DNA of 63,911 nt, filler included, from Stramenopiles sp. TOSAG23-6 (Eukaryota), in the NCBI GenBank assembly GCA_900128565.1. It is 3 parts of 3 records of this genome, joined end to end, with 100 filler letters (N's around TTAATTAATTAA, not from the genome) between each part and the next. Parts side by side here need not be neighbours in the genome. Positions count along the whole stretch, not along the records: positions 1 to 24,425 come from LT636004.1; positions 24,526 to 48,920 come from LT636005.1; positions 49,021 to 63,911 come from LT636132.1. One strand, 5' to 3'. Shown here piece after piece: positions 58 to 50,951 of the stretch. How positions within the stretch are numbered: the stretch's first letter is position 1; each line of letters begins with the position of its first letter. A model generated the notes under the pieces. The model made no database searches, was not told where the DNA came from, and saw only the letters and a list, made by a program, of their open reading frames with translations. Both the position numbers and the translations under genes were made by a program.

Positions 58-1004
58 GGAGTTAATGCGAATAAAAAATTAATGCTAAAAACAGAAATGG
101 AACGAAAAAAATATGATGGTGCGAAACTGAGACTCATTCAAAAGTCAATTAAAGATTCTTCTAAAATTTCTTCATCTTTACAAAAATATCAAGAAAAGTT
201 TGAAAATATGTATGATGAAATTTCTCAATGCCAAAAACCTGGGATTATCAAATCTCGACATAGGAATTGGTATGGAACAAACCCATTGAAAGTTGGTACT
301 AAAGTAATTGGATATAAAATGGGTCATACTCGACCTCAACGACTTGACTCAAATATTGGTGTAGTTACTAAAGTTGCATCTTCTGGTCGTTTTAAGGGGT
401 TTTATGAAGTTAAATGGTCTGATGGGAAAGTTGTAAAATGGATAAAAAGGGGTGATATTAGAATTTGTCCATCAAATTTGATTAAAGATAAAATAAATGA
501 TGATGAAGATAAAGAAGAAAACACAAAAGTTTCAATAAAAGAAAAAGTGCAAACAAACAAACTAATGTCATCAGAATCATCAGATACAATTAGAAGAAAA
601 CGAACTAAAACTGGTGAAATGAAGATCTCTGAATTTCCCAGGTATAGAGATATGACAAAGTGGTTAGATGATGTTCGTTTTTATCATCAAATCTTGAATT
701 ATTTTTTTTTGTACGAAAATTCCATACTAAACATTTTTTTTTTCGAAACATATTTTTCACAATGAATCCTTGGACGGTTAGAAGTCCATCTAGTTATAGG
801 CAACAAATGAATAGACTATCTACAGGTTTAAAATTGCTTGAGATTGAACTCTCTCAGGCCAAACATCGAAGGAGAACACACAAATATACTCAATTGCAAA
901 ATATGGCTATGAAGCATCAATATTTACCAACACATCAAAAGAATATTTTTACACCTTTTGGTAAACACGGCGAAGGAGAACTCACTCATTCTGGAATTTG
1001 GTAA
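58..1004 (+). CDS. 5'-partial gene of unknown function with an SH3/Tudor-like beta-barrel segment; exons 58-672 and 768-1004
   Basis: ORFs 13..765 and 762..1004 join in frame (KWLDD|PWTVRS) after removing 673-767. LKVGTKV...GVVTKV...YEVKWSDG resembles a Tudor/KOW barrel. Bases 1-57 are the tail of an intron. Confidence 0.6.
673..767 (+). other. non-canonical intron GT...AT (95 nt)
   Basis: GAT|GTTCGTTTT...GTACGAAA...CATATTTTTCACAATGAAT|CCT; removal restores the reading frame. Confidence 0.7.
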
Positions 1005-1112
1005 TCCAATGGATAATAAACTAATTTTATTATACTGTTTTAAAAATTTCATACTCATCAGAAAATAATTTTTTTTTTTTTAGATTTCATAACTTTCAAA
1101 AAAAAACGACAC

Positions 1113-2138
1113 TCAATCTAATTTTAAAGGACAATCGGTTTGCTTCCGTTTGATTCTTGACCATGGCCCAATTTCTGGATCAGTAATGTATTGCCATATC
1201 ACTGCACACCAAGAATCGTGGTATGGCAAGGTATCATAAAATTCAGGTGCCATCGCACGCAACGTTGGCAACCGAGATCCAGGGATGAAAGGAAAGTCAT
1301 GATGCTCGTTATGATAACCAACATTAAATGAAAATACATTGAGAGGTCCATAATATGAGTACGTCTCTTGGCCCTTTATGAAAGTGTAATGCTCGGCAAC
1401 AAAATGCCCAGCCATAGGGTGAATTCCCATGCCTAATAGAGTACCTGCAACTAGATATACAACGCCTTTACTACCAGCTAAATAATAAATACTACAATTA
1501 AATGCAATCTGCATAGTCCAATTAATAGCTTCCCACTTCTGCGGCGCTTTTGGTAGGCATACCAATGGTCTTAATGCATAGAAAGCAGGCTGTAGTAACA
1601 TCCATAAAACTTTCTTCAGAGGTCCAACAAAAAAAGACACTTCCCAGTCTGTTGGAACATCAGCGTCAATGACATCAAGACCTTGATGGCGATGATGGTC
1701 TGCATGATAACGCTTGAAAGATGCTGATGCGGGTATACCAAGAGGCAAATTTGCAACCATCCCAAACAACTTGTTGTACACCATCTTCCGGAAAGCAAGA
1801 CCGTGACTTATCTCGTGCATAGCAAGAGTCATGGCGTGGTTTATAGTTCCACCAATGCAATATGCGCACAAAAACAAAGAAAGCCAAGACATATCCTTCA
1901 CCAACCAACACATGATTACCTGAAGTGCCACCGCAAAAAGAACTTTCCACTTGGTATTAGTATCATGCCCAAACAACTTCTTTACTTGAGGATATTTAGC
2001 CATAATGGCTTTACGGCGAGAGGCATGTGGTTCATCAGTGTAACTCCACTCAAAGTCACGATTTTTCTTAGAAACTTTTCCAGAAACTTTAGGCTCGATA
2101 TCAGGTATACTTATCTGATTGATTGCTTTAGGTGGCAT
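1113..2138 (-). CDS. DEGS1: sphingolipid delta(4)-desaturase (DES1/DEGS family)
   Basis: N-terminal DFEWSYTDEPHASRRKAI; His boxes HEISH, HADHH and HNEHH; QETYSYYGPLN. Confidence 0.97.
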   Translation of the reverse strand: MPPKAINQISIPDIEPKVSGKVSKKNRDFEWSYTDEPHASRRKAIMAKYPQVKKLFGHDTNTKWKVLFAVALQVIMCWLVKDMSWLSLFLCAYCIGGTINHAMTLAMHEISHGLAFRKMVYNKLFGMVANLPLGIPASASFKRYHADHHRHQGLDVIDADVPTDWEVSFFVGPLKKVLWMLLQPAFYALRPLVCLPKAPQKWEAINWTMQIAFNCSIYYLAGSKGVVYLVAGTLLGMGIHPMAGHFVAEHYTFIKGQETYSYYGPLNVFSFNVGYHNEHHDFPFIPGSRLPTLRAMAPEFYDTLPYHDSWCAVIWQYITDPEIGPWSRIKRKQTDCPLKLD

Positions 2139-2319
2139 TCTAACTAGCTATGGAACGATGTGCTTTTAGATGTGTTTCCAGATGTGTTTCGAATTCAACA
2201 CAAAAGAATACACAATTGCTGCTGATGTGGAGTTCAACGCTTTTTGTAAGGAAATAAAACAGACCGACTTGATGACGTCATATTAGTCTAAATGGACAGG
2301 TTTGTGCAAGAAAAAAATA

Positions 2320-2927
2320 ATTTTTTATCTGTATGATATATGTATATTTTTGTTATATGTATTTTTTTGATATAATACATATAGTATTTTTTTACATATA
2401 ATTTAAGTGTTTTTGTTATATGTATTTTTTTTTATATAATACATATAGTATTTTTTTACATATAATTTAAGTGGTTTTTTTTATCTGTATGATATATGTA
2501 TATTTTTGTTATATGTATTTTTTTTGATATAATACATATAGTATTTTTTTACATATAATTTAAGTGTTTTTTTTTATCTGTATGATATATGTATATTTTT
2601 GTTATATGTATTTTTTTTTATATAATACATATAGTATTTTTTTACATATAATTTAAGTGGTTTTTTTTATCTGTATGATATATGTATATTTTTGTTATAT
2701 GTATTTTTTTTGATATAATACATATAGTATTTTTTTACATATAATTTAAGTGTTTTTTTTTATCTGTATGATATATGTATATTTTTGTTATATGTATTTT
2801 TTTTTATATAATACATATAGTATTTTTTTACATATAATTTAAGTGGTTTTTTTTATCTGTATGATATATGTATATTTTTGTTATATGTATTTTTTTTGAT
2901 ATAATACATATAGTATTTTTTTACATA
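2320..2927. repeat. AT-rich tandem repeat, ~92-93 bp unit, ~6.5 copies, alternating variants
   Basis: TATCTGTATGATATATGTATATTTTTGTTATATGTA...ATACATATAGTA...CATATAATTTAAGTG recurs at ~2326, 2483, 2575, 2668, 2761 and 2853, plus one truncated unit near 2410. Confidence 0.95.
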
Positions 2928-3000
2928 ATTTTTGTAAGATTTATTGAGTTTCCGGTCGTTATATGTTTTAGTTCATAATATAATTGTTGAATAATATAAA

Positions 3001-3915
3001 ATGCCAGTATCTTTGTCTGATTTATTTGAACATGTTGGTCCATACGGGAATGACTCAAGTTGTGACATTCTATCGTTTGCTTCAAATCGTTTTTATGTAT
3101 ACCATAAATCAAATGATGGTACAACAATGCAATTTCCGAATGGATATGTACCTTCGTTATTGGCAGAGTTGGCAGTGCGTGGAGTTCTAAGAGAATGTGT
3201 TCGTACCTTTTTCTTTGAAGATACTGTTGATGATGCGGTACGTGTGCAACTTCAAGATGCAGGTTTTAATGTCCTCGATGCAGTTAACAGTGGTTCTTCA
3301 AATTCGGTTTGGACTTGTGGTGTGCCTTACAAAGAGAAGCTTTCAATACCACCATGTTTAACCGCTGTGAGGCGTCGATTACAATCTGAAGGATTGATAC
3401 TATCAATTCCCTTTATTCAGGATCATTTTGAAAATGTGTATATTTTTATTACTTCTCCTGGTATATCATTTAAAGGAACTGAGCTTGAATTGTTAATCAA
3501 CTGTCCCGATGGTGGTACGTTACTACCTCGTATATTTTGTGCGTCTGCGTCTCATAAACGTTTATGGAAAAAGTTACCTATGGCAATGCTAATGAAGAAC
3601 GATGGAGTGTTATTCGGAACTGATGTTTCAGACATTGATACGCGATCGTATGGTATAGCATGGCAGAGAAGTATTATGCGATATCGAGTTAAATCACCCG
3701 ATATAAATGGTGACAAATGGATGTTTTTCATTGAGAAAGGTTATCCGCCTGCTTATGTAAAATGGTTGATTAAAAAGGGATTGACATTTTATACGCGAGA
3801 AATGAGTTCACGTTTATCAGACAAGTATGATAATGAAGTTCGTGGGATAGGTGACGCATCATCTTCCAAGAACTCCACATTGGTGTCACCAGTGACAATC
3901 CCGCGCCGGTGGTAG
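3001..3915 (+). CDS. hypothetical protein, 304 aa
   Basis: ATG-initiated intronless ORF with globular composition; no family recognised. Confidence 0.65.
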   Translation: MPVSLSDLFEHVGPYGNDSSCDILSFASNRFYVYHKSNDGTTMQFPNGYVPSLLAELAVRGVLRECVRTFFFEDTVDDAVRVQLQDAGFNVLDAVNSGSSNSVWTCGVPYKEKLSIPPCLTAVRRRLQSEGLILSIPFIQDHFENVYIFITSPGISFKGTELELLINCPDGGTLLPRIFCASASHKRLWKKLPMAMLMKNDGVLFGTDVSDIDTRSYGIAWQRSIMRYRVKSPDINGDKWMFFIEKGYPPAYVKWLIKKGLTFYTREMSSRLSDKYDNEVRGIGDASSSKNSTLVSPVTIPRRW

Positions 3916-4118
3916 AAACTCATGGAAGCAAGAAAGAATTAGTTATTTCTGGTTTGTTGTTCATCTCCAGAAATATTCACATTGAAATGGTTATTTATAA
4001 TATTTTATTATTTTCAATAAAATAACACTATACCTTGACACTATATCAATCTCATATTGTAATCGTTTTCACACATTGGGTAAGGATTCTGGAATTATAC
4101 TTTATTCAAATGTAAAGA

Positions 4119-4850
4119 CTAATTTATATCTTCATAAACAACAAATCCTCCATTAGGAAAACCAATCCCAGTTGCAACTGGATTATCATTGGGTATACTA
4201 CTTACTTCACTCTTAAATTGACCTACAACATCAATCTCATCATCAATAATTAATGTGAAACTCAAAGACTCCTCATTAAATGTAATGCTGACTGTATGTT
4301 CCTCTCCATCATTGACTTTCTTTGACCCAAATATTTGCTCACCGCCACGAAATCGAAATCCAACCACACCACCATGCTCTACATCTATGAAAAGATCTCG
4401 ACTTTCCTTTTTGGTAAATCTACCAATTACAGTATTTTTGAATAAAAAATTATTCACATCATGTATACCTGAGTCCAATATTTCATACAGAATATGCTGC
4501 TCGCGTGCGTTACTATTCGTGAGAAATTTAACTGGCCCTACATTTTGCCAATCAACTCTGTTTGCTAATATTACATTATCATTTCGTATTTGACGAACTT
4601 CGAGTTCACTTTCGTAATCTATTTCATTAAAAGTCAAGTAGAATGAAAATCCTGCGACGAAAAGGCTAACTATAATAAAACAAACGCCTGTTAAACACAT
4701 AGATGAGGCATAGCTTGACTGTCGTTTCTTTTTTTTATGTTTTTTGGTTTTTTTGGAAGAATTCTTTGGTGTAACTTTTTGAGAAGGAAGACTTGTTTCA
4801 TTCAATTCTGGAGAAGCCAACGATACTGAAGATGTTTCAGGTTTAGCCAT
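4119..4850 (-). CDS. type II membrane protein with a laminin-G/concanavalin-like extracellular domain
   Basis: Basic N-terminus, one TM segment (GVCFIIVSLFVAGFSFYLTF), and LamG-like KKVNDGEEHTVSIT...LIIDD. The first ATG is taken at MAKPET. Confidence 0.6.
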   Translation of the reverse strand: MAKPETSSVSLASPELNETSLPSQKVTPKNSSKKTKKHKKKKRQSSYASSMCLTGVCFIIVSLFVAGFSFYLTFNEIDYESELEVRQIRNDNVILANRVDWQNVGPVKFLTNSNAREQHILYEILDSGIHDVNNFLFKNTVIGRFTKKESRDLFIDVEHGGVVGFRFRGGEQIFGSKKVNDGEEHTVSITFNEESLSFTLIIDDEIDVVGQFKSEVSSIPNDNPVATGIGFPNGGFVVYEDIN

Positions 4851-5040
4851 TATACAGTTGATACGTTTTGAATCCAAGCTGTGGTATTGTATATGGAGGG
4901 CTTTTCACGTATTGTTGAGTCAGAGTTATGTGGGGGACGGTACGTTTTATAAATGAACACAGATATGAATATCGCCGAGATCGCCGAAACGACAATAACT
5001 AGTTACCCGGTACACCATTATTTTGTGATTTCTTCATTTA

Positions 5041-6245
5041 TTAATCTCGAAAATAGAAGTAAGTAATAAGACCACTACACAGAGCAACAAGAAAAGGCTC
5101 AAATGCATTTGATATAATTCTTTTGTACATATTTGATTTTTTTTCACAAATATTTATAACGATTGTTTCTTTTCCATTATCTAAATCATTTAATATTTCA
5201 TTTTCATGTTTTCCATTATCTAAATCATTTAATATTTCATTTGCATGTTTTCCATTATCTACTTGATTCTTTATGTTTGTTTTAGTTGATGTAGACGCAA
5301 ACATTCTCTTTGCACTCATTTTACTTCTACGATTATATAGGGCAATGCATTTTTGTAAGGAAGATTTTTCTTGTATGAGAGTAGAACAATTATTTTTTAT
5401 CTTTAGTGCTTTAGTAATATCATCCGTTGCGCCACTGAAATCAAATAATAAACGTCTCGCTTTGGCTCTTCGATATAAAGCTTTGACATTTGTAGGATCT
5501 TTTTGTAAGACCAAGGAACATGTATGGTAAAAAAATGTGTTACATTAAAAAAAAATATGTTACATTCGAAATTAGTCAAAAAAAATCTTTAGGTACAAAA
5601 TTTCGTATGAAAAAAAAAATGAAATTCATGATATGAAAACGTACACGCAGAACATGCTTCGGAATACTGTTGTGTTCTAATTTTACAACAAGCTAAGTTC
5701 AGCTGAGATTGTTGTAATATTTTTTCTACTTCTTGCTCTTCAGTAAGAGTGTCAGGAAAACAATAATCAAAGTATACCGAAACTCGACGATACTCAGCCG
5801 CCGCACGGTACCACTGGCCTTCTTTATAATAATCATTTCCAAGTTGTTTAAAACTCTTGCACTTTGAAATTTGCTCTTTTGTACTCAAGTCATAAATTGC
5901 ACGTTCTGCAGATTTATCATGATTACAACCAGACAAACCTTCGCGCTTTTTTTGAGTCTTCAATAACTTTTCAGAACGCTCATTTAAAATACGATTTTTT
6001 TCCGCAACGTCCTGCTCTGCACCCCAAATATCCCATCTATCATATTCGTCGCTGATACTCGTATCAATTCTTCCTTCCAATTCTGTGCGTCGTTTTTCAA
6101 GTGCACTTTTACGACGCCTCAAAAGATCTGTATCACGTTTTGTAGATTCCAAATTCTCTGAGACACTTTCCACCTGAAATTGGGCTGCTTTGGTAAATAG
6201 GTTTTCCATTTCAGGATATTTACGTTTCTCGTTAGATCTTGGCAT
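5041..6245 (-). CDS. TPR co-chaperone-like protein (FKBP-type TPR triplet) with a C-terminal membrane anchor; exons 6245-5645 and 5519-5041
   Basis: KQLGNDYYKEGQWYRAAAEY, LNLACCKIRTQQYSEACSA|CSLVLQKDPTNVKALYRRAKA; hydrophobic tail. Confidence 0.85.
5520..5644 (-). other. non-canonical intron GT...AT (125 nt)
   Basis: GCGT|GTACGTTTTCAT...TCATACGAAATTTTGTACCTAA...TTTTACCATACAT|GTTCC; removal restores an intact TPR motif. Confidence 0.85.
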
Positions 6246-6495
6246 TACCTGGATTAATTGGTTTTCGTTTCTCAACGTAGCATGCCCATCTATGAACTAT
6301 TAATGATCTGATCTGAACTGAAGACAGAGTACTGGAAAAATATAGTTTATTGAAAGAAAACATCACGTAATAATAAATATAATAATCTGACCGCTGCATC
6401 GATCAAAGACCGCGCGCGACGTGGCCAAATTTGCGTGATTTGAAAAGTCCGTAAAAGTCGTCTTAAGTATATAAGGGATCACTCATTAATAGAAA

Positions 6496-7299: not shown

Positions 7300-7360
7300 T
7301 ACCCAATACGTTGTCCAAAACAAATGCATATAAAATATCAAACTACTTTTATTACTTCGA

Positions 7361-10300: not shown

Positions 10301-11836
10301 TATATCATTTATCTTTGAAAGGCCATCTCTATCTCTTGTGCGATTTATTGCAGCAGAAATCGATGTTCTTTGAAGTTCGTTCGAACGTTTTTCACTTACG
10401 AAATTAACTACGGATTGTAAATCCTTTACACCTGTCAAGAACAATCCTGTCTTTTTTGTGCTCTCCAAGTTCCATTCACATAGCAATACTAATATTTTTT
10501 TAAGAGTGTCGATTGGCAAACGGAATTGATTTTTATTCTCAAGTTTTTCAATTGAATTTTCTGAATTATTTTCTGAATGAAAATGTATACACAGCGATGA
10601 AAATAATAATGATATACGAATTGCAGTATCCAATGCAAAACGCGTGAGTCGCGTTGGTTTTCTTTTTTCATTGCAACCCTCAAAAACAGCACTATCATTA
10701 CATGCACATGTAATATGAAGAAATATTTCAAAACTTTGAAATTTGTCAGACACAAAAAAATACTTTAAACTTTGCAATTTGTCAGACACAAAAAAATATT
10801 TCAAAACTTTGAAATTTGTCAGACACAAAACCTTTGTAATTCTACGAGTCTGTCGGAAAAAGAATAAAAAAATAAAAGTTGAAAGGAATGATGAAAACGT
10901 ACATGAAATGAGTGCGTTGCATAAATTCATTAGCATATTCTTCAATGTTTTTCTACGTTTTAAATTTTCACTTTCTGTCCCAACAGTCGACTTTGAATTA
11001 TTTATTTCGTGTTCTAACCGAACAGGGTTAGGGTTATTTACCTTTGTTGTTTCTATTCTCGCAGAATGATGTGATTTAATCCCAAGATCTTCAAATGTTA
11101 CCGAGAGTACTTCCCGCTTTGAATTGGCGTCTATGTGTTCGTCCGATTCAATCAGAGATAATAAATCACCAAGCAAAAGTATATAGATTAGTTTTTCACT
11201 CCGATTTGAGCTAGAAAGTACTTGTTGAAAATACAGAGCACTGGGTAACAAATTACATCCAATACTAGTATTTTGATGACGTCCTCGTAAAATAAATAAC
11301 CATTGGAAGATAAATAACAGACGTGAACGTTCGGCGTCACCAATATTATTTGATTTTATACTTGAAGTCCTTTCACATCTGGCTCTACCATTTTGACGCT
11401 TCCACAAAAAAAACCACCGATGAACTAAAGGCTCCATGATTGTCCTAAAAACATGAGTATCTGTAGATTTAGATATACATGATGTAATCATATGAATTGC
11501 ATGACATAGGGTCTTACTTGATTTATAGGGTGTGTTCTTCTCACGATGTAGCGATGACGTCGAACGTAAAAAAGTATTCTCATCCAGATGGGTCAAATTT
11601 GCTCGCGCAGCGACTTCTTTGCCTCCAAGAAGGGCTTTCACGTGGCGAGTGGCTTTTTCAGAATCATCATTACATCCTGAAATCAATAATCTTGAAACAT
11701 TTGCATATTTACTTGATGGAGAAAATTGCCCTGATTCTGAAGAGTAAATAGAACGTAAAATTTCCCCACGAGATTTGGTAGCAGCAGCATCCAAAAGTAG
11801 TGTCAAAGATTGGCCTAAAGAGAGATCTACAGACAT
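7361..11836 (-). CDS. large HEAT/ARM-repeat protein with an inserted SH3/KOW-like module; one in-frame intron at 10708-10902
   Basis: HEAT motifs (LGDEKAKIRTEAAKLLGRF, VRRQSAEVLARF, IEDSFENIRLEGLKLLG). An aberrant F-rich repeated stretch corresponds to the intron. Confidence 0.8.
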   Translation of the reverse strand: MSVDLSLGQSLTLLLDAAATKSRGEILRSIYSSESGQFSPSSKYANVSRLLISGCNDDSEKATRHVKALLGGKEVAARANLTHLDENTFLRSTSSLHREKNTPYKSSKTLCHAIHMITSCISKSTDTHVFRTIMEPLVHRWFFLWKRQNGRARCERTSSIKSNNIGDAERSRLLFIFQWLFILRGRHQNTSIGCNLLPSALYFQQVLSSSNRSEKLIYILLLGDLLSLIESDEHIDANSKREVLSVTFEDLGIKSHHSARIETTKVNNPNPVRLEHEINNSKSTVGTESENLKRRKTLKNMLMNLCNALISCTFSSFLSTFIFLFFFRQTRRITKVLCLTNFKVLKYFFVSDKLQSLKYFFVSDKFQSFEIFLHITCACNDSAVFEGCNEKRKPTRLTRFALDTAIRISLLFSSLCIHFHSENNSENSIEKLENKNQFRLPIDTLKKILVLLCEWNLESTKKTGLFLTGVKDLQSVVNFVSEKRSNELQRTSISAAINRTRDRDGLSKINDIKDESILDYELWLCKQWLTCAPSLISSHGRFLYSKTAIARDSINNWVNVEIITYDQVRTLLRLAILYTGKLKLKERISLLSDQNLSHSIIRAAVEHMNSRICGPIPKLVASLLQETITALLSLNGGEEKFDEVLEVLFTLLDDNDNIEEDIWNKHSMSEAGIKMVCYFAIQDPLKSIPALISRLMKSSSLTRWNALAVVDELITTSSLQLRNTILDENCLLFILGEHLLICLGDEKAKIRTEAAKLLGRFDASWIIPQLCQRIENKQTKIRSAASSSLLQVLQHLRNPKDVMCILMSYIRNTSQIDSQQLKLGDMVLLQNLSALHLNGRRGYIISSLLENGRFKIRLMNEKRQEKIVKNIAVKKENLRVIVNNSENTTKKVDTEEKISLCDRLIKILSRWASVINHSQWMCVGTVIINEAMIFPRDHTIIRILRILGERIQCRLQKIYFEKHNTNDILDEHYYTDSIWSLVLIPMETELHTSKDMTESLHTSKELPSNYSLDNEHTQEILFRRLNQVLILKSFPVFEFVHLCDRTRVEKQNCIPQRLIQVLIQSVTASQEFESVRRQSAEVLARFPPKVLHPILFSKLRTISNELQQFVRSEKNPRKCSSIVISAKTMLYCLCTSIMIYSSVHENIRDVVTKCNGDICKGGFEVVLQILQSSFLHCTSLEIPDDIYKLQQGCIDTMACILRISIDIGEGVTNIVNDDNTEESRPHKFQLRLPNDSANVLKQHMYNRPLISEVKQIPSPDSRFSNGHIGATILSICLELIEKGETKLPIIQFSKECNDIVSYLTNGTSDISKRVKTYTISLKSYEVSERVRICLVNSLLTVMKMLKKHQMHLFGVLCINSIIHTVYKTKIPTTKDDSPGRVNTVTTSPLIREAVIRLLFTIAYHSKKIVKHYSNELFSIAYSAIEDSFENIRLEGLKLLGILLTTVELQNLLKESRSGALGQIIALLRNIRTSDCSPDTKKLSENLLGLIH
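10708..10902 (-). other. non-canonical intron GT...AT (195 nt, stop-free, multiple of 3)
   Basis: TCAT|GTACGTTTTCATC...GAAATATTTCTTCATATTACAT|GTGCA; contains 3 internal ~37-nt repeats carrying CTGAC. Confidence 0.8.
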
Positions 11837-18602: not shown

Positions 18603-18675
18603 ACTTGTTTAATTTTCAAATCTTAATTTATAGGTCATTTATTTTACATTGTGTTTAATTTGCAAATCTTAAAAT

Positions 18676-21600: not shown

Positions 21601-23609
21601 ATTACACCCTTGTAAAGCTCGAAGTTTCTTCATACTTTGAGGTAATTTATCTATATTATTATGCTGAATTTCCATTGATTTGAGTCGCGTGAGCAACCCT
21701 AATGTATCTGGTAATCGTTTAAGCTGATTGTATGAGAGTTTTAATTTTGTTAGCCCGGTACAACAACCCAAGGAATTTGGAAGACTTTCTAATTTGTTTC
21801 GTGTGAGATTTAAATCAGTTAAATTAATGCAGCCCCCAAATCCTTTACACAGAGAAACTAAATCATTTTCCAAAAGATTCAGTGTCTTTAACCCAATCAA
21901 ACCACCAAATGAATTTGGTAAGTCTACAAGTTTATTTCCTCTAAAATCTAATTCAGTCAAATCTGTCATTTTACCAAAACTTTCCGGAAGATGCTTTAAA
22001 TTGTTATCATGTAAAGTCAATCTTCGTAACGAATGGAATGAACCAAATCCATTTGGTAGATTTGATAGCCGATTTGGACTAAGTAGTAAAGTTTTCAGTG
22101 ACGTTAGATGTCCGAATGAATTTGGTAAAGATAATAATTTGTTTTGCGATAAATTTAAATATTTCATTAGATTACAATTCCCAAAGTTTTCTGGAAGATC
22201 TGAAAGCTGATTTTTTGATAAAGAAAGTTCTGTCAACAAAATACAATTACATAGTTCTATTGGAATTGATTTCATACCATTACTACTAAGATTTAGAGAT
22301 GTAAGTTTTGTCAGCATTCCAATTTCTCCTCCAAGTGTATGCAACTTATTATAGCTCAAATTACAGCTTTCTAATTGTTTCAATTTACCAAATTCTGATG
22401 ACTCTGTCAAGTCATTGTAGACTAACCTCTTTAAACCTAAATTATTTATATGTAATGACTGCAATGCTGTAAGTCTTCCTACACGCCAAGGCAATTCTTT
22501 TAGCTTATTCCCCCCAACTCGGAGGTCAGTTAACATCGTGGCAGCACCAACAGTTTCTGGTAAAAGTTTAATAAAGTTATGTGTTGTGAAAAAATATTTC
22601 AAAAACAAATTAATTTTTTGTTATTTACAAAATTTCGTACGAAAACAAAATTCAAAATTCAAAAAAAAATAAAACATACATACTCTGCATTAAATATTTC
22701 AAGATATTTAAGTTCGACAAAGAATTGACTTGGTATGACTTCAATTTCATTATTACCAAAATCAATCTCTCGGAGATATTTACATTGAACAAACTCTTCG
22801 TACATTTCTTGAATATGATTTCTTCCGAGTCGGATTGTCGTTAAGGATTCTCGTAAGCTCAAGATCTCACGAGGTACTTGTTCAATCATATTATCTGAAA
22901 AATCCAGAATTCGAAGAAATTCACAATTCTCCATTGTCATTGACATGATTCCCCATAAAGAAAGAGTTTCCATTTTTTCTAGAGTATCATTTGGAATTTC
23001 TCTTAGGAGATTTCCACTCAAATTTATGGTCTCTAAAGATGTTATTGCCCAAATGCAGCTGGGACATTCCTGTAGTCTATTATTTGCGAGAGAAAGTTCT
23101 GTAAGATTTTCCCTGTAATCCATTATTTCTTGTGGAAATTTCTTCAAGGAAATGTTTTCTATTTCAATTTTTTTTATATCTGTATAAACACCATTTGTAT
23201 CGGGTTCGGGTTCATTGTACTGTCTGCGGTATGTAGCTAACTTTTGTTGTAAAATATCAAACTTTTTCTTTCTAATTTTAAATTTTGANTCTCGCTTTGC
23301 ATAACGAAGGGCATCAATACTCTCCTCAAGAGTTAGTTCTTTTTCAATATTTGGCGTTTCGAAAGCATCGATTTCCTCGGTTTCTTGCCAAGCAATTTCG
23401 CCAACTTGTTCTTGGAATCCTTCGAAGTTATTTTCATCTTTCCATTCATCACTTTCTTTCCATTCCTTACTATTGTCGAATTCATCATTTTCTTTCCATT
23501 CCTGATTACTTTTATACTCATCGCCATCGTAATAACCACCATAACTTTCGACATATCTTTCTTCAGTGTACTCATGACTAGTTGGGTCTATCCTGGCAGT
23601 ATCTCCCAT
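18676..23609 (-). CDS. LRR + TPR + IQ + 2 PDZ multidomain protein; exons 23609-22680 and 22578-18676
   Basis: Many LxxLxLxxNxLxxLP repeats continuing across the intron (LEIFNAEY|NFIKLLPE); TPRs; GMWLVAIDG and VRPGDELIAIDG (PDZ). Confidence 0.88.
22579..22679 (-). other. non-canonical intron GT...AT (101 nt)
   Basis: TAT|GTATGTTTT...TTTCGTACGAAATTTTGT...GAAATATTTTTTCACAACACAT|AAC; removal restores the LRR register, and the nearest downstream AG is out of frame. Confidence 0.88.
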
Positions 23610-26455: not shown

Positions 26456-26518
26456 TAAAAATTAACAAATTGAGAAATGTAATAAAAAATATNTTTTTTT
26501 CAAATTTTTATATAAATA

Positions 26519-34434: not shown

Positions 34435-35726
34435 TCACCACCATTTAGTAAAAGCATTATACCAAATTGTTACAGTTCTTTTTAGTGGACATATTATGAT
34501 GTAACAAAAGTTATGTGGGCTTGAGGTAGGAAATAATTTCACAGGTTTGTCCTCACCCGTACCATCACTAGCATTAGGTTTCTGGTACAATCCTTGAATT
34601 GCAAAAGTAAACGATGCTACTTCAATTCCTCCAGTACTAGCACTTCGATGTATTGTGAAAATATATTTTATTTTGAAAATTTTGAAAAAAAGTTATAAAA
34701 ATGTTTTTTTTTTGAAGAATATTCGATTAAAAACGAAATAAATTAAAAAAATTCAAATATGAAAAACATACATGTACAGTTAATAGATCCTTATAAAAAT
34801 GTTTTGTAATTTTTAAAATATTTTCTGTTTTATCTTCCCATTGGCACATTGCCCCACCCACTGCTAAATGTTTGAATATACGAAATAATAATTCGTTTTT
34901 CTCATCTTCAGAAAAAATCCAAAAATGTTCAGAATCTTCATCACAAAGCATCGCACGTAATACATCAGAAATTGTAACACCATCGATACAGTATAGTGAA
35001 AAATATATACATTTTTTTCTTTTTGAATAACACAAATCGGTGGATACGGAATTGAAAAAAAAAATTCAATTTTTGAAAAAAAAAATTCAATTTTTGNAAA
35101 AAAAAAATTCAATTTTTGGAAACGTACACATTTTCCATACATTTGTGTATGTAACCATGAGAACCACCTCGTGTTATCTGCTCGGTTTCGAGACGATCAA
35201 AGAAATTCATACTTGTTTTTGTTGTATAAATTGTTTCAATATTGACTTTACTAAATGTCTGTTTATGTTGTGATGAATTAGGGTTAGGGTTACCTTTTGT
35301 GTCTTTTGTGTCTTTTGGGAATTGAAAAGAATTTTGAAAAGCTGCTGAATTAAAAACACCAAGTAAGAACTTTTCTATATAGTAGTTATCTGTGGTACAA
35401 TTCGTTTTCGAAACTTTTGAAACATCAAATTTCTCCGAAAAGCTATAGCGTTTGAGTTGCCAAAACGTATCTAAATTCCACTTTTTTAACATGAATAAAT
35501 TATCCTTGTTTTCAAACGTTGGTACTGAATCTCCGATAAAAGTTAAATGAAAGTTACTTGGTTCATTTATTGTATTCACGTTGTCTTTTACACTGTCAGA
35601 ACTTGTTTTATCGTGTACAAAGTTAGAACTTGTTTCATCTTTTGCATTTGTTTTTGAGCTTTCAGATTCATCTTTTACTGTTATGGTTTTGTCGTACATA
35701 TTCATTGTTTTTGTATCTGAAGGCAT
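34435..35726 (-). CDS. CFAP300: cilia- and flagella-associated protein 300 (C11orf70 family); introns 34989-35127 and 34648-34771
   Basis: SMNFFDRL, ISDVLRAML, FSEDEKNELLFRIFKHLAVGGAMCQWED, TKHFYKDLLTVH|RS..., HNFCYIIICPLKRTVTIWY. Confidence 0.9.
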
Positions 35727-37719: not shown

Positions 37720-39011
37720 ATGCCTTCAGATACAAAAACAATGAATATGTACGACAAAACCATAACAGTAAAAGATGAATCTGAAAGCTCAAAAACAAAT
37801 GCAAAAGATGAAACAAGTTCTAACTTTGTACACGATAAAACAAGTTCTGACAGTGTAAAAGACAACGTGAATACAATAAATGAACCAAGTAACTTTCATT
37901 TAACTTTTATCGGAGATTCAGTACCAACGTTTGAAAACAAGGATAATTTATTCATGTTAAAAAAGTGGAATTTAGATACGTTTTGGCAACTCAAACGCTA
38001 TAGCTTTTCGGAGAAATTTGATGTTTCAAAAGTTTCGAAAACGAATTGTACCACAGATAACTACTATATAGAAAAGTTCTTACTTGGTGTTTTTAATTCA
38101 GCAGCTTTTCAAAATTCTTTTCAATTCCCAAAAGACACAAAAGACACAAAAGGTAACCCTAACCCTAATTCATCACAACATAAACAGACATTTAGTAAAG
38201 TCAATATTGAAACAATTTATACAACAAAAACAAGTATGAATTTCTTTGATCGTCTCGAAACCGAGCAGATAACACGAGGTGGTTCTCATGGTTACATACA
38301 CAAATGTATGGAAAATGTGTACGTTTCCAAAAATTGAATTTTTTTTTTNCAAAAATTGAATTTTTTTTTTCAAAAATTGAATTTTTTTTTTCAATTCCGT
38401 ATCCACCGATTTGTGTTATTCAAAAAGAAAAAAATGTATATATTTTTCACTATACTGTATCGATGGTGTTACAATTTCTGATGTATTACGTGCGATGCTT
38501 TGTGATGAAGATTCTGAACATTTTTGGATTTTTTCTGAAGATGAGAAAAACGAATTATTATTTCGTATATTCAAACATTTAGCAGTGGGTGGGGCAATGT
38601 GCCAATGGGAAGATAAAACAGAAAATATTTTAAAAATTACAAAACATTTTTATAAGGATCTATTAACTGTACATGTATGTTTTTCATATTTGAATTTTTT
38701 TAATTTATTTCGTTTTTAATCGAATATTCTTCAAAAAAAAAACATTTTTATAACTTTTTTTCAAAATTTTCAAAATAAAATATATTTTCACAATACATCG
38801 AAGTGCTAGTACTGGAGGAATTGAAGTAGCATCGTTTACTTTTGCAATTCAAGGATTGTACCAGAAACCTAATGCTAGTGATGGTACGGGTGAGGACAAA
38901 CCTGTGAAATTATTTCCTACCTCAAGCCCACATAACTTTTGTTACATCATAATATGTCCACTAAAAAGAACTGTAACAATTTGGTATAATGCTTTTACTA
39001 AATGGTGGTGA
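37720..39011 (+). CDS. CFAP300: CFAP300, mirror copy; exons 37720-38318, 38458-38674 and 38799-39011
   Basis: Reverse complement of 34435-35726. Confidence 0.9.
38319..38457 (+). other. non-canonical intron GT...TG (or GT...AC if shifted 2 nt upstream), 139 nt; mirror 34989-35127
   Basis: AATGT|GTACGTTT...TATATTTTTCACTATACTG|TATCGAT gives KCMENVIDGVTISD. Confidence 0.75.
38675..38798 (+). other. non-canonical intron GT...AT, 124 nt; mirror 34648-34771
   Basis: GTACAT|GTATGTTTT...TATATTTTCACAATACAT|CGAAGT; the nearest downstream AGs are out of frame. Confidence 0.88.
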
Positions 39012-40486: not shown

Positions 40487-40780
40487 TTTGTGAAATAAAC
40501 AGGGTACCTATTTTAAAGCGTTAAACAACTATAAAAACAAAGGGACGGAGGGATCGCGGATGCCGCGCACTCGCACTGACTCTCTATTTTTTAAAAAAAT
40601 TAATTAAAATTAATTTCAAAAAAAACAGGTGATGTTTACATAAAGATTTTTTATCTAGCTAGTCCTAGTAGCATAAAATTTATAAAATTATATCAGGCAT
40701 TTTTTAAACTCCTAATTAGTAAGAAACATAGCAGATTACACGAGTTGGTTCTGTGAAGCAATGTACAATGGTGTAACTCG

Positions 40781-45600: not shown

Positions 45601-46927
45601 TTTTTCTGAAGCAGGATTGGCACCGCTAATGCTTAGTGAAAAACCTGTAGAGCAGCATCACTCTTTCCGTAATTCTATAGTTAAAACAGAAGTATGCCGA
45701 GGCGGTGGCCGTAGTAGAGATTACAATACTCAACGGGAAAATATGCTTGAGCTCCTGCACCTAAAGACATTTGAAAAGATGGCGAGGAGGACTGGTGCAT
45801 TCCATGGAAAGCTAGATGAAGCACTTGATGATAAAACAGTTAAAAATGAAATTAAAAATGAAATTGATTCTAGCACCAGTGAAGTCTTTGATACACCACA
45901 TCATTGGGGATCATTTGTAGATAATGGAGATAAATCTGATGATGATATTGAAGATGACGGTGAAGATGTTACCCAACAAGAAGGTGCACCTACCACTGAA
46001 GAATTCGAAATACAACGTTTTGATATTGGAGGAAATTATGAAGAGAAGAAACATATAAATGGCCGCACAATACCATCAAGATTCGAACGTACCTCTGGAG
46101 ATACTGTGAAAATGAAGCTTATTTATGGAAAGACTTGCAAATGCATCAGAATTAGAGCTAAAAGATATAGTGGCGGTTGTGAATGGCGTTATGACATACC
46201 ATTTATGTATATATCTGCTGTAAGTAGCAAAGTAGTGAATTCAACAGGTCGTGGTAATAGTGACAGTACATGTCTTATCTTTCAGTTTGCACATGCATTA
46301 ACAGTTGGAATGAAAGAATCTCATCAGAATAGATTTGTAACACTGAAAGCAAATGAGGTGAATATGTCAAATCTATCCGTTGCTGCACATGTAAAGATAG
46401 TATTGGATAATACTGAAAATGCAAAGACAATCCATGATGGTTTATGCTATATGGGTTCAATTGGCGAGTACACCGCAAAGTGCAGTAATGAAGTGAATAC
46501 TAGAGATAGTCTTGAGTCAGAAGCAGCTCGAAATGCATTTCAATGTCAAAGTATAGTTGACCCCATTATTATCTTGGCGGCAGAAAATCCTACACATGAT
46601 GTAATGAAAGAAGCAAAGAAACATCAAGAAAGTAGAATTTTGAGCGAGATACAAGCATGGGAAAAGACAAGGCCGGAGCAAATGTTGCAAGATTCCGGGG
46701 ACTATAAGCTTGCTACTGGTACGGGTAAATGGTATACTTATGAGTGTCAACGTTGCTCAAAGGTTTGTTCAAAATGTAATGAGAAGCATAATCTTCTTAC
46801 ATGGCTGGATGAAAACGGCTCATGGATAGATGAACTGGGGCTACCGCATAACCCGTGCCCCAAAATGAAGAAGGACTCTAAACTTGGAAAGGTACAGAAG
46901 AGACATTGCATGTATAATAGCAAGTAA
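42698..46927 (+). CDS. putative DDE transposase, mirror copy
   Basis: Reverse complement of 26519-30748. Confidence 0.65.
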   Translation: MSESKDSEVSELTLSHHDDRLQRQRPFSSNRIHQNVKQPRMARNLTTRILRSFEFKSKSSSIRFGRDIWIDAVTADVLKWFKTTPELKDVKVRKDSMKRTVTDIIDNYIISGCKTKVLCTATEATNKFDHEVYCGFESELRTRNSMSTNIDNDVYWEECRVLKVISSTTPQSERMYQVECTDGHKCTVSGTCLKKISNKRKHWESSTGQREVLWSPSQICKVAINVALKESFDICRRYHTLAEVSNWKSGCRLEGPRADFAFKVYRKMIEGYFGFGRKDILRTLNIVLHDRSSLETAINLYVKDAERDEWLQRFDCIDETIQQNIRQLAYDRPLFNIKCRSRIIAATISALGGNISPTVGDPIQPASPIAAKDKVDYPTPDKLKDTQLLEEIIKTSDMVPIIIGTFGEDKDLIPPQVLMTVIDCFMRGERGAEVTHSLKERCGPLVDNILGRLGMAGAVTAFSNAIVTAQLQSRSSARQFERIVNPKFEMARILSGFISKITKTTAELVQILKDTLPNIKLTTWSVGASNEYPHGMSISQVKVSTALSDYLLQRSKTTASHLFQCDADGNVMDIVEGAKLYLSVFVDANVVSDNSILGNYRQTMHNTLIAVKVHIGDAAEQNRTMNLLPMVLFTGNDHRIEFEQAACDGPPGGESWWTQYISILKNGLHIEGLKHTIAVEHIIWGPDGAGARAIFGFTSVGSAQDISFSGPMTRELRHFLNANGVQRFGAFIGRTGDVHDLLAKEAIAKGAAAVTELRQSTGIAFPCKLYVPGMNITDPKRISSGIWHHFSTLSKKYLAVECRLMKLRGILDPWKHHIIYHLQTPFGLQEYGTKGKMKVTGADSGKLQDLMAQPYEKLFQCNHPECLRLVKKYDNSLYKGEDGNFQFCFFDPNSYEAKGLKHLHSRFAQYRTILNCATTQEYIKCRPWVRPCMLSFQRTAAHLFGNELNTPKGGGGIFHLVEVVDEACFSEAGLAPLMLSEKPVEQHHSFRNSIVKTEVCRGGGRSRDYNTQRENMLELLHLKTFEKMARRTGAFHGKLDEALDDKTVKNEIKNEIDSSTSEVFDTPHHWGSFVDNGDKSDDDIEDDGEDVTQQEGAPTTEEFEIQRFDIGGNYEEKKHINGRTIPSRFERTSGDTVKMKLIYGKTCKCIRIRAKRYSGGCEWRYDIPFMYISAVSSKVVNSTGRGNSDSTCLIFQFAHALTVGMKESHQNRFVTLKANEVNMSNLSVAAHVKIVLDNTENAKTIHDGLCYMGSIGEYTAKCSNEVNTRDSLESEAARNAFQCQSIVDPIIILAAENPTHDVMKEAKKHQESRILSEIQAWEKTRPEQMLQDSGDYKLATGTGKWYTYECQRCSKVCSKCNEKHNLLTWLDENGSWIDELGLPHNPCPKMKKDSKLGKVQKRHCMYNSK

Positions 46928-47224
46928 TATTTATATAAAAATTTGAAAAAAANATATTTTTTATTACATTTCTCAATTTGTTAATTTTTATGTAACATTT
47001 GCTACATTTGCAATGTTTGCTACATTTGCTACGTTTGCAATGTTTGCTACATTTGCTGCATTTGCAATGTTTGCTACATTTACAATGTAATTCACTTTTA
47101 CAAGAGATCCGTTGAACTTAAACGACAGTTTCGTAAGTTTCGTAACTGTCGTTTAAGTTCAACGGATCTTATGCTCTATAAAGAAATCTTTTGTATTATT
47201 ACTTACTGGGCGGCAGTTTCTCCT

Positions 47225-48499
47225 TCAGATACGGCACTTCAGATACATTTTTGACTTAAGCCAACTTTTGTAGACTGAAGCAAGCGAATGAGAAGTTCTT
47301 GTCCAACCGGTCCTAGCTTTAAGCATAGCAATGTGCTGATGCTTTACAGTATTGCTTGAAGTATAATATTTAAAGTAATGAAACTTAAAGTGTTCATGAA
47401 GTAATACACGGTACCAATAATCTATCATATTGAATGTTAACGTACCACTTGGATCTGCCCAACCACCAGAGTTTCTATTCTCGGATTGAAGATTCTCTCT
47501 TGCATTTACATATGATTTCCGCCGTCGTTCTTTCTTCCTTTTAGTGCATGGAATGCATATTTTATAAGTGTTAAAGGTTTCTGGAAACCTTGGTTGACCA
47601 GTTTCACCTTTTTTTGTGCAAGCAAAACAAACACGCGTCACGCCGATCCCATCAAAGCACCCACATTCCCTACATTTATCACAGTTTCGTTGACAACCGT
47701 CACATCCAACAGATTTGACACCAATTTCAAGATCACTGATATCCAAAGATGCGTGGAGTTTGCAACGTTGTGCATATGAACCAAATTCAAAATCAGTAGG
47801 GTTTGGCTTTGTTTCACCTGTTTTCAGCATTGCCCAACACCCACATGCACATTGCTTTCTACGAGCTTGATTTAGAGCTAGTTCTAAGTTTACTTTATTT
47901 GTCTTCTTTTTCTGATTTTGTGCAGCTACTTTATCTACACAACCTAGAGTCCTACATTTTGTTGCGTTGAGATGGCGAGGTATAGACCTTTCCTTACAAT
48001 TTGGACACGGTATCAGTCCCCATCCAAACTCTTCACCTCCCTGCTTCTGACCATTAATGTGCTCCATACGTTTTTTTCTGATTAATTCCTTTAATGAATA
48101 AAAAGGCACAGATACTATTGTCAAAGCATCTTTTATATCAAGTTTATTTTCATTCCCATTTAACAACCTTTCTCTCCGGTCCCTAAAATATCGGTTAAAG
48201 GATTTTTTTACAAGCTTCTTTCCGATAATATATTTAAGAGCATGTTTTTCAATTTGACGTCCAGCCTGTTCATCTGTAGTAGTATCTAACCAGAATGTTG
48301 TATTGTTCTTCCACTTGGACGACTTAGCGAGTGCAATCCAGTCTTCAAGTGTAGGCCATCTGCTACCCTTGAACTTCTTTCTTGTATTACCACATAATTG
48401 ATTCACATCAGCATGAAATTCTGATTTATCCTTCTTCTTTAGATTGCCAAACTTTTTCCTGGCCTTTTTTTGCTTTTTCTTTGCAGGTTTTGACATCAT
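47225..48499 (-). CDS. Cys-rich accessory protein, mirror copy
   Basis: Reverse complement of 24947-26221. Confidence 0.75.
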   Translation of the reverse strand: MMSKPAKKKQKKARKKFGNLKKKDKSEFHADVNQLCGNTRKKFKGSRWPTLEDWIALAKSSKWKNNTTFWLDTTTDEQAGRQIEKHALKYIIGKKLVKKSFNRYFRDRRERLLNGNENKLDIKDALTIVSVPFYSLKELIRKKRMEHINGQKQGGEEFGWGLIPCPNCKERSIPRHLNATKCRTLGCVDKVAAQNQKKKTNKVNLELALNQARRKQCACGCWAMLKTGETKPNPTDFEFGSYAQRCKLHASLDISDLEIGVKSVGCDGCQRNCDKCRECGCFDGIGVTRVCFACTKKGETGQPRFPETFNTYKICIPCTKRKKERRRKSYVNARENLQSENRNSGGWADPSGTLTFNMIDYWYRVLLHEHFKFHYFKYYTSSNTVKHQHIAMLKARTGWTRTSHSLASVYKSWLKSKMYLKCRI

Positions 48500-48920
48500 T
48501 AGGCATGCCTTGCGGCAATTATATTATCATATCGAGGAACGAAAGATACATACTTAAAAAAAAAAAAAATTGAGCTCCACTTTGACTGCCGAAAAGACGT
48601 CAGGTACCCGGTACTAGGCCAGGCGGCTGCATGACTTCGGGGGTTCGGCCCTACATCAAAGGTCGATCAAAGCCCATGCATACATTAAAATGATTCAGTT
48701 TATACTATGTACAATGTTACTTGCATCTTCATGTGTATGTCATATTGAAGCAGCTACTACGAGAACTTTTCGAATTACCCCGGCTGGTCGTCGTCGTCGT
48801 CGCAAGAAGTGTGGTGGTTGTGGTTGTTGGGCTTGTGGTGGTAATGCGAAGGCTCGGGAGGCAGATGCGGCGGCTGCGGAAGAGGAGGAACGTCGGGCTG
48901 GTGCGCGAATCATTAAGGCT

Positions 48921-49020
48921 NNNNNNNNNNNNNNNNNNNNNNNNNNNNNNNNNNNNNNNNNNNNTTAATTAATTAANNNNNNNNNNNNNNNNNNNNNNNN
49001 NNNNNNNNNNNNNNNNNNNN
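48921..49020. other. artificial scaffold linker
   Basis: N44-TTAATTAATTAA-N44. Confidence 0.97.
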
Positions 49021-49073
49021 ACAAAATTTCGTACGAAAAAAAAATAAATTTGAAATTCATAATGAAAACGTAC
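49021..49073 (-). other. 5' part of a family intron, truncated by the contig end
   Basis: GAT|GTACGTTTTCATTATGAATTTCAAATTTA(T9)CGTACGAAATTTTGT. Confidence 0.85.
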
Positions 49074-49757
49074 ATCAGACGTTGGAACTTGAAAAAGACA
49101 ATTGTGGAGGTTAGGGTCAAACGTCTCTCCAACAACTCCAAACGGTGTCACTCCATTTTTCTTCAAAGCTTTGAGTAAATCATTTTCCGTCATACGAACA
49201 CCTTCTAAAAGAGTTGTCAAAGCTTCACTTTGATCGATGTTACTTTTCATATCTGAGGTTTCTTCAGCGGATGAAACGCATCTTTGAAGATTATCTGCGA
49301 CATCAAGAAGTGATTTTGCAAATCCTTTTGCAGCATATTCTTTTGCTTGCAATACATCCCGAGCAGCAATTTTACGTACGTTTTCCATTTCTGCGTGATC
49401 ACGTAATCTTGTGGCTTGTGCTTCCTTTAACTTCTCCTCCAATTGTGAAATTTTAGTGTTTAACTCAACGGTGGCAGTGTCTTCAGCGCTTTCGTTGTCG
49501 TTTTCTTCGGTATCATTTTGATCATTTTTTGGTTGTTTCTCAACAGTTTCTTCATCTTTATTATCTACTGTAGACTCATTTTGCCATATAGGGTTTGATG
49601 TATGAAATGCACGGTGAAATATTCCACGTTGAACATAACTGCGGGTTAAACCAGCGGCATTACCATTTATAAGAGTTGTGTTACTTCTGACACATTGGTT
49701 AACACGAACTAGAGACGAGACTGAGCGGGTAAAAGTACTGAACAGTTTTTGGGACAT
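49074..49757 (-). CDS. grpE: mitochondrial GrpE nucleotide exchange factor, first exon (3'-partial)
   Basis: Transit peptide; AEMENVRK, FAKSLLDVADNL, LLEGVRMT, GETFDPNLH. Confidence 0.95.
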
Positions 49758-50166
49758 TCTTTACTTTAATTAAAATGCAATGGATACTTAAAAAGAAAGA
49801 TATCGAAAGTATTCTTCAATGTTTCTTCTGTTCCAGTATATACAGATAAATGTAGTGTTGTTGTGTGTCGAGTCTTCGAAAAAAGTGAAAGAATTCTGCT
49901 GACTCACCCAATTTGGGACAAACCTGCTGATTTTCGATTTTTTTCTTACCAATTTCTTTTGTGACTCGACACTACGACGTCTCTTTTTTCCGAAAATTTT
50001 TCGGTCTTCTTCTACGAAGTATTACTTACTACTAGCTAGTACTATATTTTTCCAGTACCTAGCTAGCTAGTACTCGTACCACCTGCCAAGTCTTCTTCTA
50101 GCTAGNCACTTTATAATATACTTCAGAAACTACGCCTCTCAATACAGCTGTTATATAAAACACAGA

Positions 50167-50951
50167 ATGTTTGTTAATAAACGGCCCTTTGATATTGGAT
50201 GTATTGCTGGAGCGTTTGCCGTTGGCGTATTTTGTGGATATAGTTTTAATCTTGTCAAAGTCATTTCTTCTGTACGTTCAATTCTAGGACAATCAAAAAA
50301 AGAAAAAGATACTTCAACTAAACGAAGAATACCAAAGGACCGTCTACTAAAAGCTCTAATCGAAGAAGCAAACAACACAGTAACCAATACATATAGAGAA
50401 TTTACGTTAAAAGAGTGGAATAGCCATCAATTTAGAAAAGACAATGGTTTTATTGGCTTTGACTATTGCCATAATAAAGATAATAGAGCTGTTTTTATCC
50501 AGAAATATTGGTATAATGATGACGAAAAAAAAATGGTTGGACTTGTTCATTTTGGTACAAACTGTGAGTCACATAAAGGAATCTGTCATGGAGGTAGTTC
50601 AATGTCTGCATTTGATGATATTTGTGGACATCTTGCCTTTTGTGCTGTAAACGATGCAGTCTCTTGTACGTTTTCATTCAGTAGAATCAAATATACAATA
50701 GTATGTATTTTTTTATACCTAACAAATTTGAAATTTGACATATTTTCACCTACAAATGGTCTGGTGCAACTGTTCAAGTGAATGTGTCCTTAATGAAGCC
50801 AATTACTTTAAATAGCACTCTACAAATAAATGGTGAAGTCACCTCTATTAAGGGAAAGAAAATTTCAATAGTTGGTTCGCTGAATGATCAAAATACGGGT
50901 GAAATTTACGCGACGATGACAGGTTTGTCCCTCTGTCCTATCAAAATATGA
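50167..50951 (+). CDS. hot-dog fold acyl-CoA thioesterase (THEM4/PaaI-like); exons 50167-50665 and 50758-50951
   Basis: CESHKGICHGGSSMSAFDDICG; the second exon reads WSGATVQVNVSLMKPI...GKKISIVG. Confidence 0.85.
50666..50757 (+). other. non-canonical intron GT...AT (92 nt)
   Basis: TCTT|GTACGTTTTCAT...TACCTAAC...CATATTTTCACCTACAAAT|GGTCT; removal restores the frame. Confidence 0.8.

Follow-up and report, generated by a model that had tools for sequence, protein, structure and literature searches.

The AG that closes an intron is among the most conserved signals in eukaryotic genes and is read in the catalytic core of the spliceosome at the second step of splicing, when the last G of the intron pairs with the first G. 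Introns of the U12 type tolerate different 3′ terminal bases, and the choice of their 3′ site depends on its distance from the branch box. Intron borders in Fritillaria borealis are mostly AG-AC or AG-AT, and the non-conventional introns of euglenids have no conserved borders and rely on pairing of their ends. Here, we describe probable introns that begin with GT and lack the terminal AG in a stretch of 63,911 nucleotides (nt), hereafter called the window, from the assembly GCA_900128565.1 of Stramenopiles sp. TOSAG23-6. Their boundaries were assessed from RNA, reading frames, protein homology and splice-site motifs.

Several described systems lie close to this case. For Amoebophrya, the passages of PMC7789003 used here report introners and RNA-confirmed non-canonical introns, with no clear dinucleotide signature, with hairpin-forming inverted repeats of 8-20 nt and with some small nuclear RNAs missing; for the introners of Aureococcus anophagefferens, the same passages describe splice motifs that are canonical and repeats that do not vary in length. 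Giardia and Trichomonas use a fused branch-point and 3′ motif, with [G/C]TATGT at the 5′ end and CT[A/G]ACACACAG at the 3′ end, according to the portion of PMC10711314 that treats them, and the survey in that portion holds a single GT-AT junction, which is rarely spliced. Genes in MAST single-cell genomes were predicted by est2genome, Genewise and SNAP, and the sections of PMC5778133 that deal with this step make no mention of unusual splice sites. In a literature search with most subscription journals outside its scope, no account of introns without AG in stramenopiles, MAST-3 and Incisomonas included, came to light.

Introns of the window and their boundaries

The window probably harbors genuine introns of one repeat-like family, set in the compact, AT-rich and intron-poor genome of a marine flagellate. 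The copies are given below with their first and last bases, the evidence at the junction and, for some, the rank of the 3′ end in a leave-one-out motif scan.

1..57, + strand: partial intron (3′ part), cut by the contig start; module CATACGAAATTTTGTACCTAAC and 3′ motif; leave-one-out rank 7
673..767, + strand: intron of 95 nt; GTTCG...CAATGAAT; 95 nt skipped by RNA contigs; frame restored
5520..5644, − strand: intron of 125 nt in an FKBP-type TPR gene; GTACG...CCATACAT; PDB chains colinear; frame restored
10708..10902, − strand: candidate intron of 195 nt in a HEAT-repeat gene; GTACG...ATTACAT; motifs; leave-one-out rank 41
22579..22679, − strand: intron of 101 nt in an LRR gene; GTATG...CAACACAT; central module; frame restored; leave-one-out rank 1
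34648..34771, − strand: mirror copy of 38675-38798, exact, on the other palindrome arm; not an independent locus
34989..35127, − strand: mirror copy of 38319-38457, exact, on the other palindrome arm; not an independent locus
38319..38457, + strand: CFAP300 intron 1, 139 nt; GTACG...CTATACTG; termini GT..TG only; Pfam colinear
38675..38798, + strand: CFAP300 intron 2, 124 nt; GTATG...CAATACAT; Pfam colinear
49021..49073, − strand: partial intron (5′ part) in a GrpE gene; GTACGTTTTCAT...CGTACGAAATTTTGT; cut by the spacer 48921-49020
50666..50757, + strand: intron of 92 nt in a hotdog-fold thioesterase gene; GTACG...CCTACAAAT; 3′ motif shifted by 1 nt; frame restored; leave-one-out rank 299

An earlier note on this DNA had placed the seven complete introns and the partial intron 1-57, and sequence and motifs bear out all of these positions. 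It had overlooked the mirror copies of 38319-38457 and 38675-38798, which are exact, the partial intron at 49073, which came from a donor scan, and the repeat family as such.

Two spacers of the form N44-TTAATTAATTAA-N44, at 24426-24525 and 48921-49020, join the three contigs of the window, and adjacency across them is meaningless. The mirror copies lie in a perfect palindrome of 12,297 nt with arms 24426-36722 and 36724-49020, which are 100% complementary around an N-run at 36603-36843. Single N's are mirrored between the arms and each gene of the palindrome is present twice; the structure is probably a chimera of amplification or assembly rather than biology.

The segment 673-767 is precisely removed from polyA RNA at its 3′ motif. 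Ten seawater metatranscriptome runs share 7-15% of the sampled words of positions 1-10000, and four runs were aligned to positions 1-20000, a range that includes, of the seven complete introns, those starting at 673, 5520 and 10708. Runs X2 and X3 are polyA libraries that one study made from two samples; in each of them, one contig joins position 670 to 766 and skips 95 nt, with an ambiguity of 2 nt and a side of 37 in the X2 contig and of 39 in the X3 contig. The X3 contig shows 0 differences from the window over the 308 nt of 363-670. The removed piece is therefore 671-765, 672-766 or 673-767, with the termini AT..GA, TG..AA or GT..AT, and an AG end is impossible. This is the one complete intron of the seven for which removal is seen in RNA; at 5520-5644 and 10708-10902 the exon cover is absent or comes from the repeat module alone, with no exon-spanning contigs.

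Excision of each segment rejoins the flanking open reading frames (ORFs). For 10708-10902 the frame is uninformative because the segment, at 195 nt, is in frame and free of stops; this candidate was recognized by its motifs and by a GC content of 0.26 against 0.33-0.35 in the flanks. The Pfam profile of CFAP300 is matched by exon 1 (amino acids [aa] 86-218, profile positions 8-118), exon 2 (aa 2-72, positions 121-191) and exon 3 (aa 4-64, positions 195-246), and with the split codon counted, zero residues are missing or extra at both junctions. In the TPR gene, both exons match ten natural PDB chains, which are colinear across 5520-5644 with an offset of 0, namely those of FKBP4 (1qz2_A, 1p5q_A and 8ffv_D), FKBP5 (8ffw_D, 1kt0_A, 7l7i_C, 5njx_A and 1kt1_A), AtFKBP42 (2if4_A) and Cyp40 (1ihg_A). 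Judged from the conceptual translations, protein colinearity requires the same register of the cut at these three further junctions (38319, 38675 and 5520). With CFAP300 exon 1 and TPR exon 1 as queries, protein word searches gave no matches. In the GrpE gene, the Pfam match reaches aa 229 of the ORF and breaks off exactly where the 49073 donor lies, leaving 30 positions of the profile unmatched.

For 22579-22679 and 50666-50757, frame and motif agree and homology leaves the junctions unsettled. Removal of the former keeps the 24/23 register of the LRR units, and around the latter both exons match the THEM4 chain 4gah_A in order, with weak E-values. A HMMER search with 800 aa around 10708-10902 returned 12 weak matches, all of them downstream of the junction (query 587-800).

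In-frame pairs of GT or GC with AG (GY-AG) exist near every intron, and each of them changes the protein by at least 2 residues. No GY-AG pair with zero length change was found for any of the seven introns, and the alternatives give up the conserved GTAYG donor or the 3′ motif. Among boundaries that leave the product equal, none ends in AG for any of the seven; GT..AT fits six, and 38319-38457 allows GT..TG only. An AT-AC reading, with boundaries shifted by -2, was rejected as a general rule and is possible for three of the seven introns.

The claim of the earlier note that these introns do not end in AG is thus upheld by the RNA joint at 673-767, by colinearity at three junctions and by the lack of an equal-product boundary with AG for all seven. 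Its statement that the window holds no GT-AG intron also stands, as no other interrupted gene was found, with the sample being small.

Splice-site motifs and the repeat family

Each of the nine donors is a yeast-like GTAYGT or a GTTCGT leading into T's; position +5 is always G and position +6 always T, which is compatible with an extended donor for U1 and U6. Six of the complete introns start with GTACGTTT or GTATGTTT and one with GTTCGTTT. The U12 donor RTATCCTT occurs in 0 of the 9 donors, as had been noted before, and the six RTATCCTTT sites in the window interrupt no ORF, five of the six being antisense to their ORF. The GC content of the introns is 0.14-0.26 compared with 0.26-0.37 in the flanks.

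At the other end, the last three bases of the complete introns are CAT in four cases, AAT in two and CTG in 38319-38457. The 3′ ends share a motif ...ATATTTTTCACAATACAT, with ...(G)AAATATTTTTCAC or ...ATATTTTTCAC followed by 7 nt and with ...ATACAT as the commonest form; the end of 1-57, ..ATACTT with CTT as its last three bases, was placed by the register of this motif alone. A box TTCAC, TTTAC or TTCAT stands 7 nt before the cut in six of the eight ends and 8 nt before it in 50666-50757. YTNAY is found at -9 in six of the eight ends, together with T-runs. The branch-like boxes CTAAC and CTGAC, which the earlier note had put at about 35 nt upstream in several introns, are present in similar form in about five of the eight ends, at roughly -35 to -45, and not in all of them. 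Two nt before the cut stands CATAC, whose reverse complement, GTATG, forms the first five bases of the intron; this match is imperfect in the GTACG copies.

A position weight matrix (PWM) was built from the last 22 nt of the introns. Scores above 17 bits are reached solely by these ends and by the palindrome mirror copies, each with a GTAYGT donor 92-195 nt upstream, and no strong match lies between genes or antisense in the window. In leave-one-out scans the eight ends take the ranks 1, 6, 7, 8, 12, 32, 41 and 299 among 102,066 positions, so that the extended 3′ motif proposed in the earlier note is recovered at ranks 1-41 for seven of the eight. With up to 3 mismatches allowed, an 18-mer 3′ consensus has four matches against 0.57 expected, and the one at 8948 is an antisense chance match.

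A module of about 60 nt is common to five window introns (1-57, 673, 5520, 22579 and 49073) and to a metagenome contig, L001. It consists of a T-run, CRTACGAAATTTTGTA, a TAAC-like box NNTAA(C), a second T-run and GAAATATTTTT. Intron 5520-5644 contains the central module and a duplicated 3′ motif, and the intron fragment of the GrpE gene aligns with it along its full length, alike from the first base. Three contig ends, including the start of the window, fall inside the module; assemblers would be expected to break in this way within a high-copy repeat. In the RNA run X1, 606 records lie mostly on the module, at positions 4-35 and 5578-5620 (bin depths 1105 and 1805), with unlike sequence to either side of it. 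Some of their loose ends resemble other copies, namely ...TTTCTCACAAAACAT and, as reverse complements, ...GTT/GTACGTTTT and ...CAT/GTATGTTTT (slashes here and below mark cuts). One module copy from an RNA library continues after ...AAAATAC with AT and then with GC-richer sequence.

Exon ends and intron ends are joined by direct repeats of 2, 1, 3, 2, 0, 5 and 1 nt, the longest being TACAT in CFAP300 intron 2. Their total is reached by 4 of 20,000 random sets and by 5 of 20,000 sets preceding random GTs. All nine copies lie inside genes in sense orientation. On sequence grounds, the introns form one repeat family with a shared module and a boundary direct repeat, and the conservation of the 3′ motif may therefore owe something to shared ancestry, as in introner elements, rather than to a functional signal alone. 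Intron 38319-38457 comprises three copies of CAAAAATTGAATTTTTTTTTT, and 10708-10902 comprises three units of about 36 nt containing AAATTTGTCAGACAC; the interiors of the introns thus appear to change by repeat expansion while the ends stay fixed.

Beyond the window, a pattern scan of metagenomes for the module gave six loci, with L001 as the only family member. Its positions 1-1076 are chimeric: about 170 nt of exon, 5′ intron part and module are fused to a bacterial-type SDR gene in reverse orientation, and a sequencing adaptor closes the contig. Module scans of a viral collection (7 loci) and of prokaryote genomes (76 loci) gave chance matches throughout.

A possible mechanism and competing explanations

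The splicing machinery would be U2-like, judging from the GTAYGT donors, in which +5 is G and +6 is T, from the absence of the U12 donor and from introns that show no excess folding stability. A cut set by distance is favoured because the terminal bases vary while the spacing between box and cut holds. We tentatively propose that a U2-like spliceosome selects the 3′ site of these introns by distance or by an extended motif, without AG. The cut would follow the branch-like YTNAY box (TTCAC, TTTAC or TTCAT) by 7 nt, or else be set after the extended motif as a whole; a terminal AG would not be needed, and the system would work like the fused branch and 3′ motif of Giardia minus its AG. A G...U pair at the second step would then need an altered pocket or looser proofreading, which is speculation. 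The family may have spread like introner elements, with exon ends that tend to repeat the intron ends in the form AT/GTAYG...CAT/, and this boundary repeat could represent a short target-site duplication or a mirrored consensus in place of AG/GT...AG/.

In a wider and rather doubtful version, the whole intron complement of this stramenopile lineage would be one introner-like family whose splice code has passed from AG/GTRAGT...YAG/ to AT/GTAYGTTT...TTTTCAC-N4-CAT/. The terminal AG would go unread, the cut would fall at a fixed distance after the extended branch-like motif, the mirrored AT would be a 2-nt target-site duplication or the result of co-evolved U1/U5 contacts, and public gene models built on GT-AG would be wrong. 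A lineage-wide absence of AG-ending introns would be an extrapolation from about nine introns.

Several observations weigh against true introns of one mobile family with a distance-set cut. RNA support comes from one junction and one study, with one low-depth contig per run (depth 2 and 9.2), and the sample of about nine introns comes from one window of three joined contigs. The sole GY-AG alternative for 22579-22679, which removes a further 24 aa and thereby one whole LRR, also keeps the repeat register. At 50666-50757 the junction makes a loop 5 residues longer than in THEM4, as judged from weak matches, and 10708-10902 is open in frame with no homolog spanning it. The CTAAC-like box at -35 to -45, present in about five of the eight ends, is an equally good candidate for the branch point. 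The outside scans gave one further copy, on the chimeric contig L001, so that spread as a mobile element is hypothetical, and the inverted match between GTATG and CATAC is as short as 5 nt.

Other explanations have to account for the same data. The introns could be derived minor-type (U12-like) introns, in which a retuned set of U11, U6atac and U12 measures the position of the 3′ site from a branch box near the end. A conserved T-rich box does precede the cut by a short and constant distance, the terminal bases are variable (CAT, AAT, CTG), and GTATGTTTT matches the consensus GTATCCTTT at 7 of 9 positions. We nevertheless regard this origin as unlikely: CC at +5/+6 occurs in 0 of 9 donors, all of which carry G and T there, the six RTATCCTTT sites with their five antisense members leave every ORF uninterrupted, and the TCCTTAAC box is absent. 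An excision outside the spliceosome, guided by structure or carried out by an endonuclease and a ligase on paired ends as proposed for euglenid introns and Amoebophrya introners, would agree with the non-AG ends, the 5-nt complementarity of GTATG and CATAC, the direct repeat between exon and intron, and the pairing of ends in three of five folds. However, none of the five introns folded with 10-nt flanks is more stable than its shuffles (z from -0.52 to +1.27), and end pairing is missing in two of the folds. The donor is a strongly conserved GTAYGT of spliceosomal type, and the inverted match of 5 nt compares with 8-20 nt in the Amoebophrya data of PMC7789003, as far as the passages used here describe them. 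Such a mechanism is improbable.

The segments could also be unspliced transposon insertions that break the genes of this cell, with the RNA contigs lacking 673-767 transcribed from empty alleles in the population. The boundary direct repeat makes an empty site identical to a spliced form, metatranscriptomes sample whole populations, and RNA libraries may contain DNA. Against this, all nine copies are genic and in sense, none being intergenic or antisense, conserved genes such as GrpE and CFAP300 are among the carriers, a frameshift would follow from six of the seven complete copies, the X3 contig agrees with the window at every base of a 308-nt stretch, and the libraries were polyA-selected; we consider this explanation very improbable. 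The least credible alternative is that of ordinary GT-AG introns with mis-set boundaries. Although frame-keeping GY-AG pairs exist near every intron, and the one at 22579-22679 removes exactly one LRR unit, the RNA joint rules out AG at 673-767 and the colinearity with profile or chains rules out a change of length at three more junctions. Every GY-AG alternative shifts the length by at least 2 residues and drops the GTAYG donor or the 3′ motif.

Genomic setting and comparison with known systems

The window is AT-rich (GC about 0.28-0.41) and gene-dense, and most of its genes are single long ORFs in the standard code, spaced by 40-300 nt. Those named by Pfam are eukaryotic: sphingolipid desaturase, PAP2, PX, LRR, TPR, CFAP300, GrpE, CobW/ZNG1-type GTPase, cofilin, PPR and protein kinase. 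This gene set fits a mitochondriate flagellate. Rfam searches at gathering score and ARAGORN gave no matches on the window. Two units of 294 nt (41661-41954 and 41977-42270), 95% alike and 316 nt apart, lie between or at the edge of ORFs and are mirrored at 31176-31785. In a cofilin/coiled-coil gene, an A9 run near 59710 marks the switch between two overlapping frames, 58900-59802 and 59705-61267 (region 59705-59802, − strand), and a homopolymer error is more likely here than an intron. RNA contigs of several runs share base differences from the window, for example in clusters at 15349-15360 and 16885-16923, which suggests that different seawater samples contain strains of this organism that are closely related.

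The consequences for annotation can be seen in a public model. The CobW ORF 51299-52885 (+ strand) is identical to the eukprot protein P0001 (label beginning GSMAST32) but for six in-frame gaps of 33-84 nt, each GT..AG, the first of which deletes the P-loop GKTTLISHILK inside a gapless Pfam cobW match. These six introns are probably spurious products of a predictor trained on GT-AG. Gene finders that assume GT-AG would miss introns of the kind described here and may invent false ones. Taken by itself, the database label suggests a MAST-3-like stramenopile.

If correct, the preferred reading of these segments as spliceosomal introns without AG would provide a natural experiment on the docking of the 3′ site, in a free-living lineage with a normal GT donor and AT (or TG) ends. 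It would add one more case to the few lineages with rule-breaking introns and would tie an introner-type gain of introns to a changed splice code.

In their departure from GT-AG, which is lineage-wide in Fritillaria and euglenids, the introns of the window resemble those of these groups; unlike them, they keep GT and replace the 3′ AG alone, within a long motif. From U12-type introns they differ in having neither the TCCTTAAC branch box nor RTATCCTT, the defining sequence at the 5′ end. The introners of Micromonas pusilla and Aureococcus are described in PMC7789003 as short, mutually similar introns of compact marine picoeukaryote genomes, placed in sense within genes, with boundary direct repeats and a short terminal inverted match. 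The family of look-alike copies and their sense orientation recur here, together with a direct repeat that varies between 0 and 5 nt and an inverted match of 5 nt. Those introners, in contrast, use canonical splice motifs and keep their direct and terminal inverted repeats at a constant length; here the 3′ end is non-AG, and mobility of this family is putative. With Amoebophrya, to the extent covered by the excerpts cited above, the window shares the setting in a marine protist, RNA-confirmed introns outside GT-AG (here one) and partly repeated elements with direct repeats over the boundaries; the 5′ GTAYG and the extended 3′ motif are strongly conserved here, in contrast to Amoebophrya, and no stable hairpin is predicted. 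On the corresponding part of the literature on Giardia and Trichomonas, likenesses are the scarcity of introns, a donor of the GTATGT type, a long 3′ motif at a fixed register and a YTNAY about 9 nt from the cut, similar to a short distance between branch and 3′ site. Their motif, however, ends in AG, and the motif found here is unrelated in sequence (TTTTCACAATACAT). Compared with all these systems, the present introns are best described, from their sequence, as putative lineage-specific, non-canonical and introner-like spliceosomal introns, of a kind that is known and in a GT...AT form with extended 3′ motif that appears to be new.

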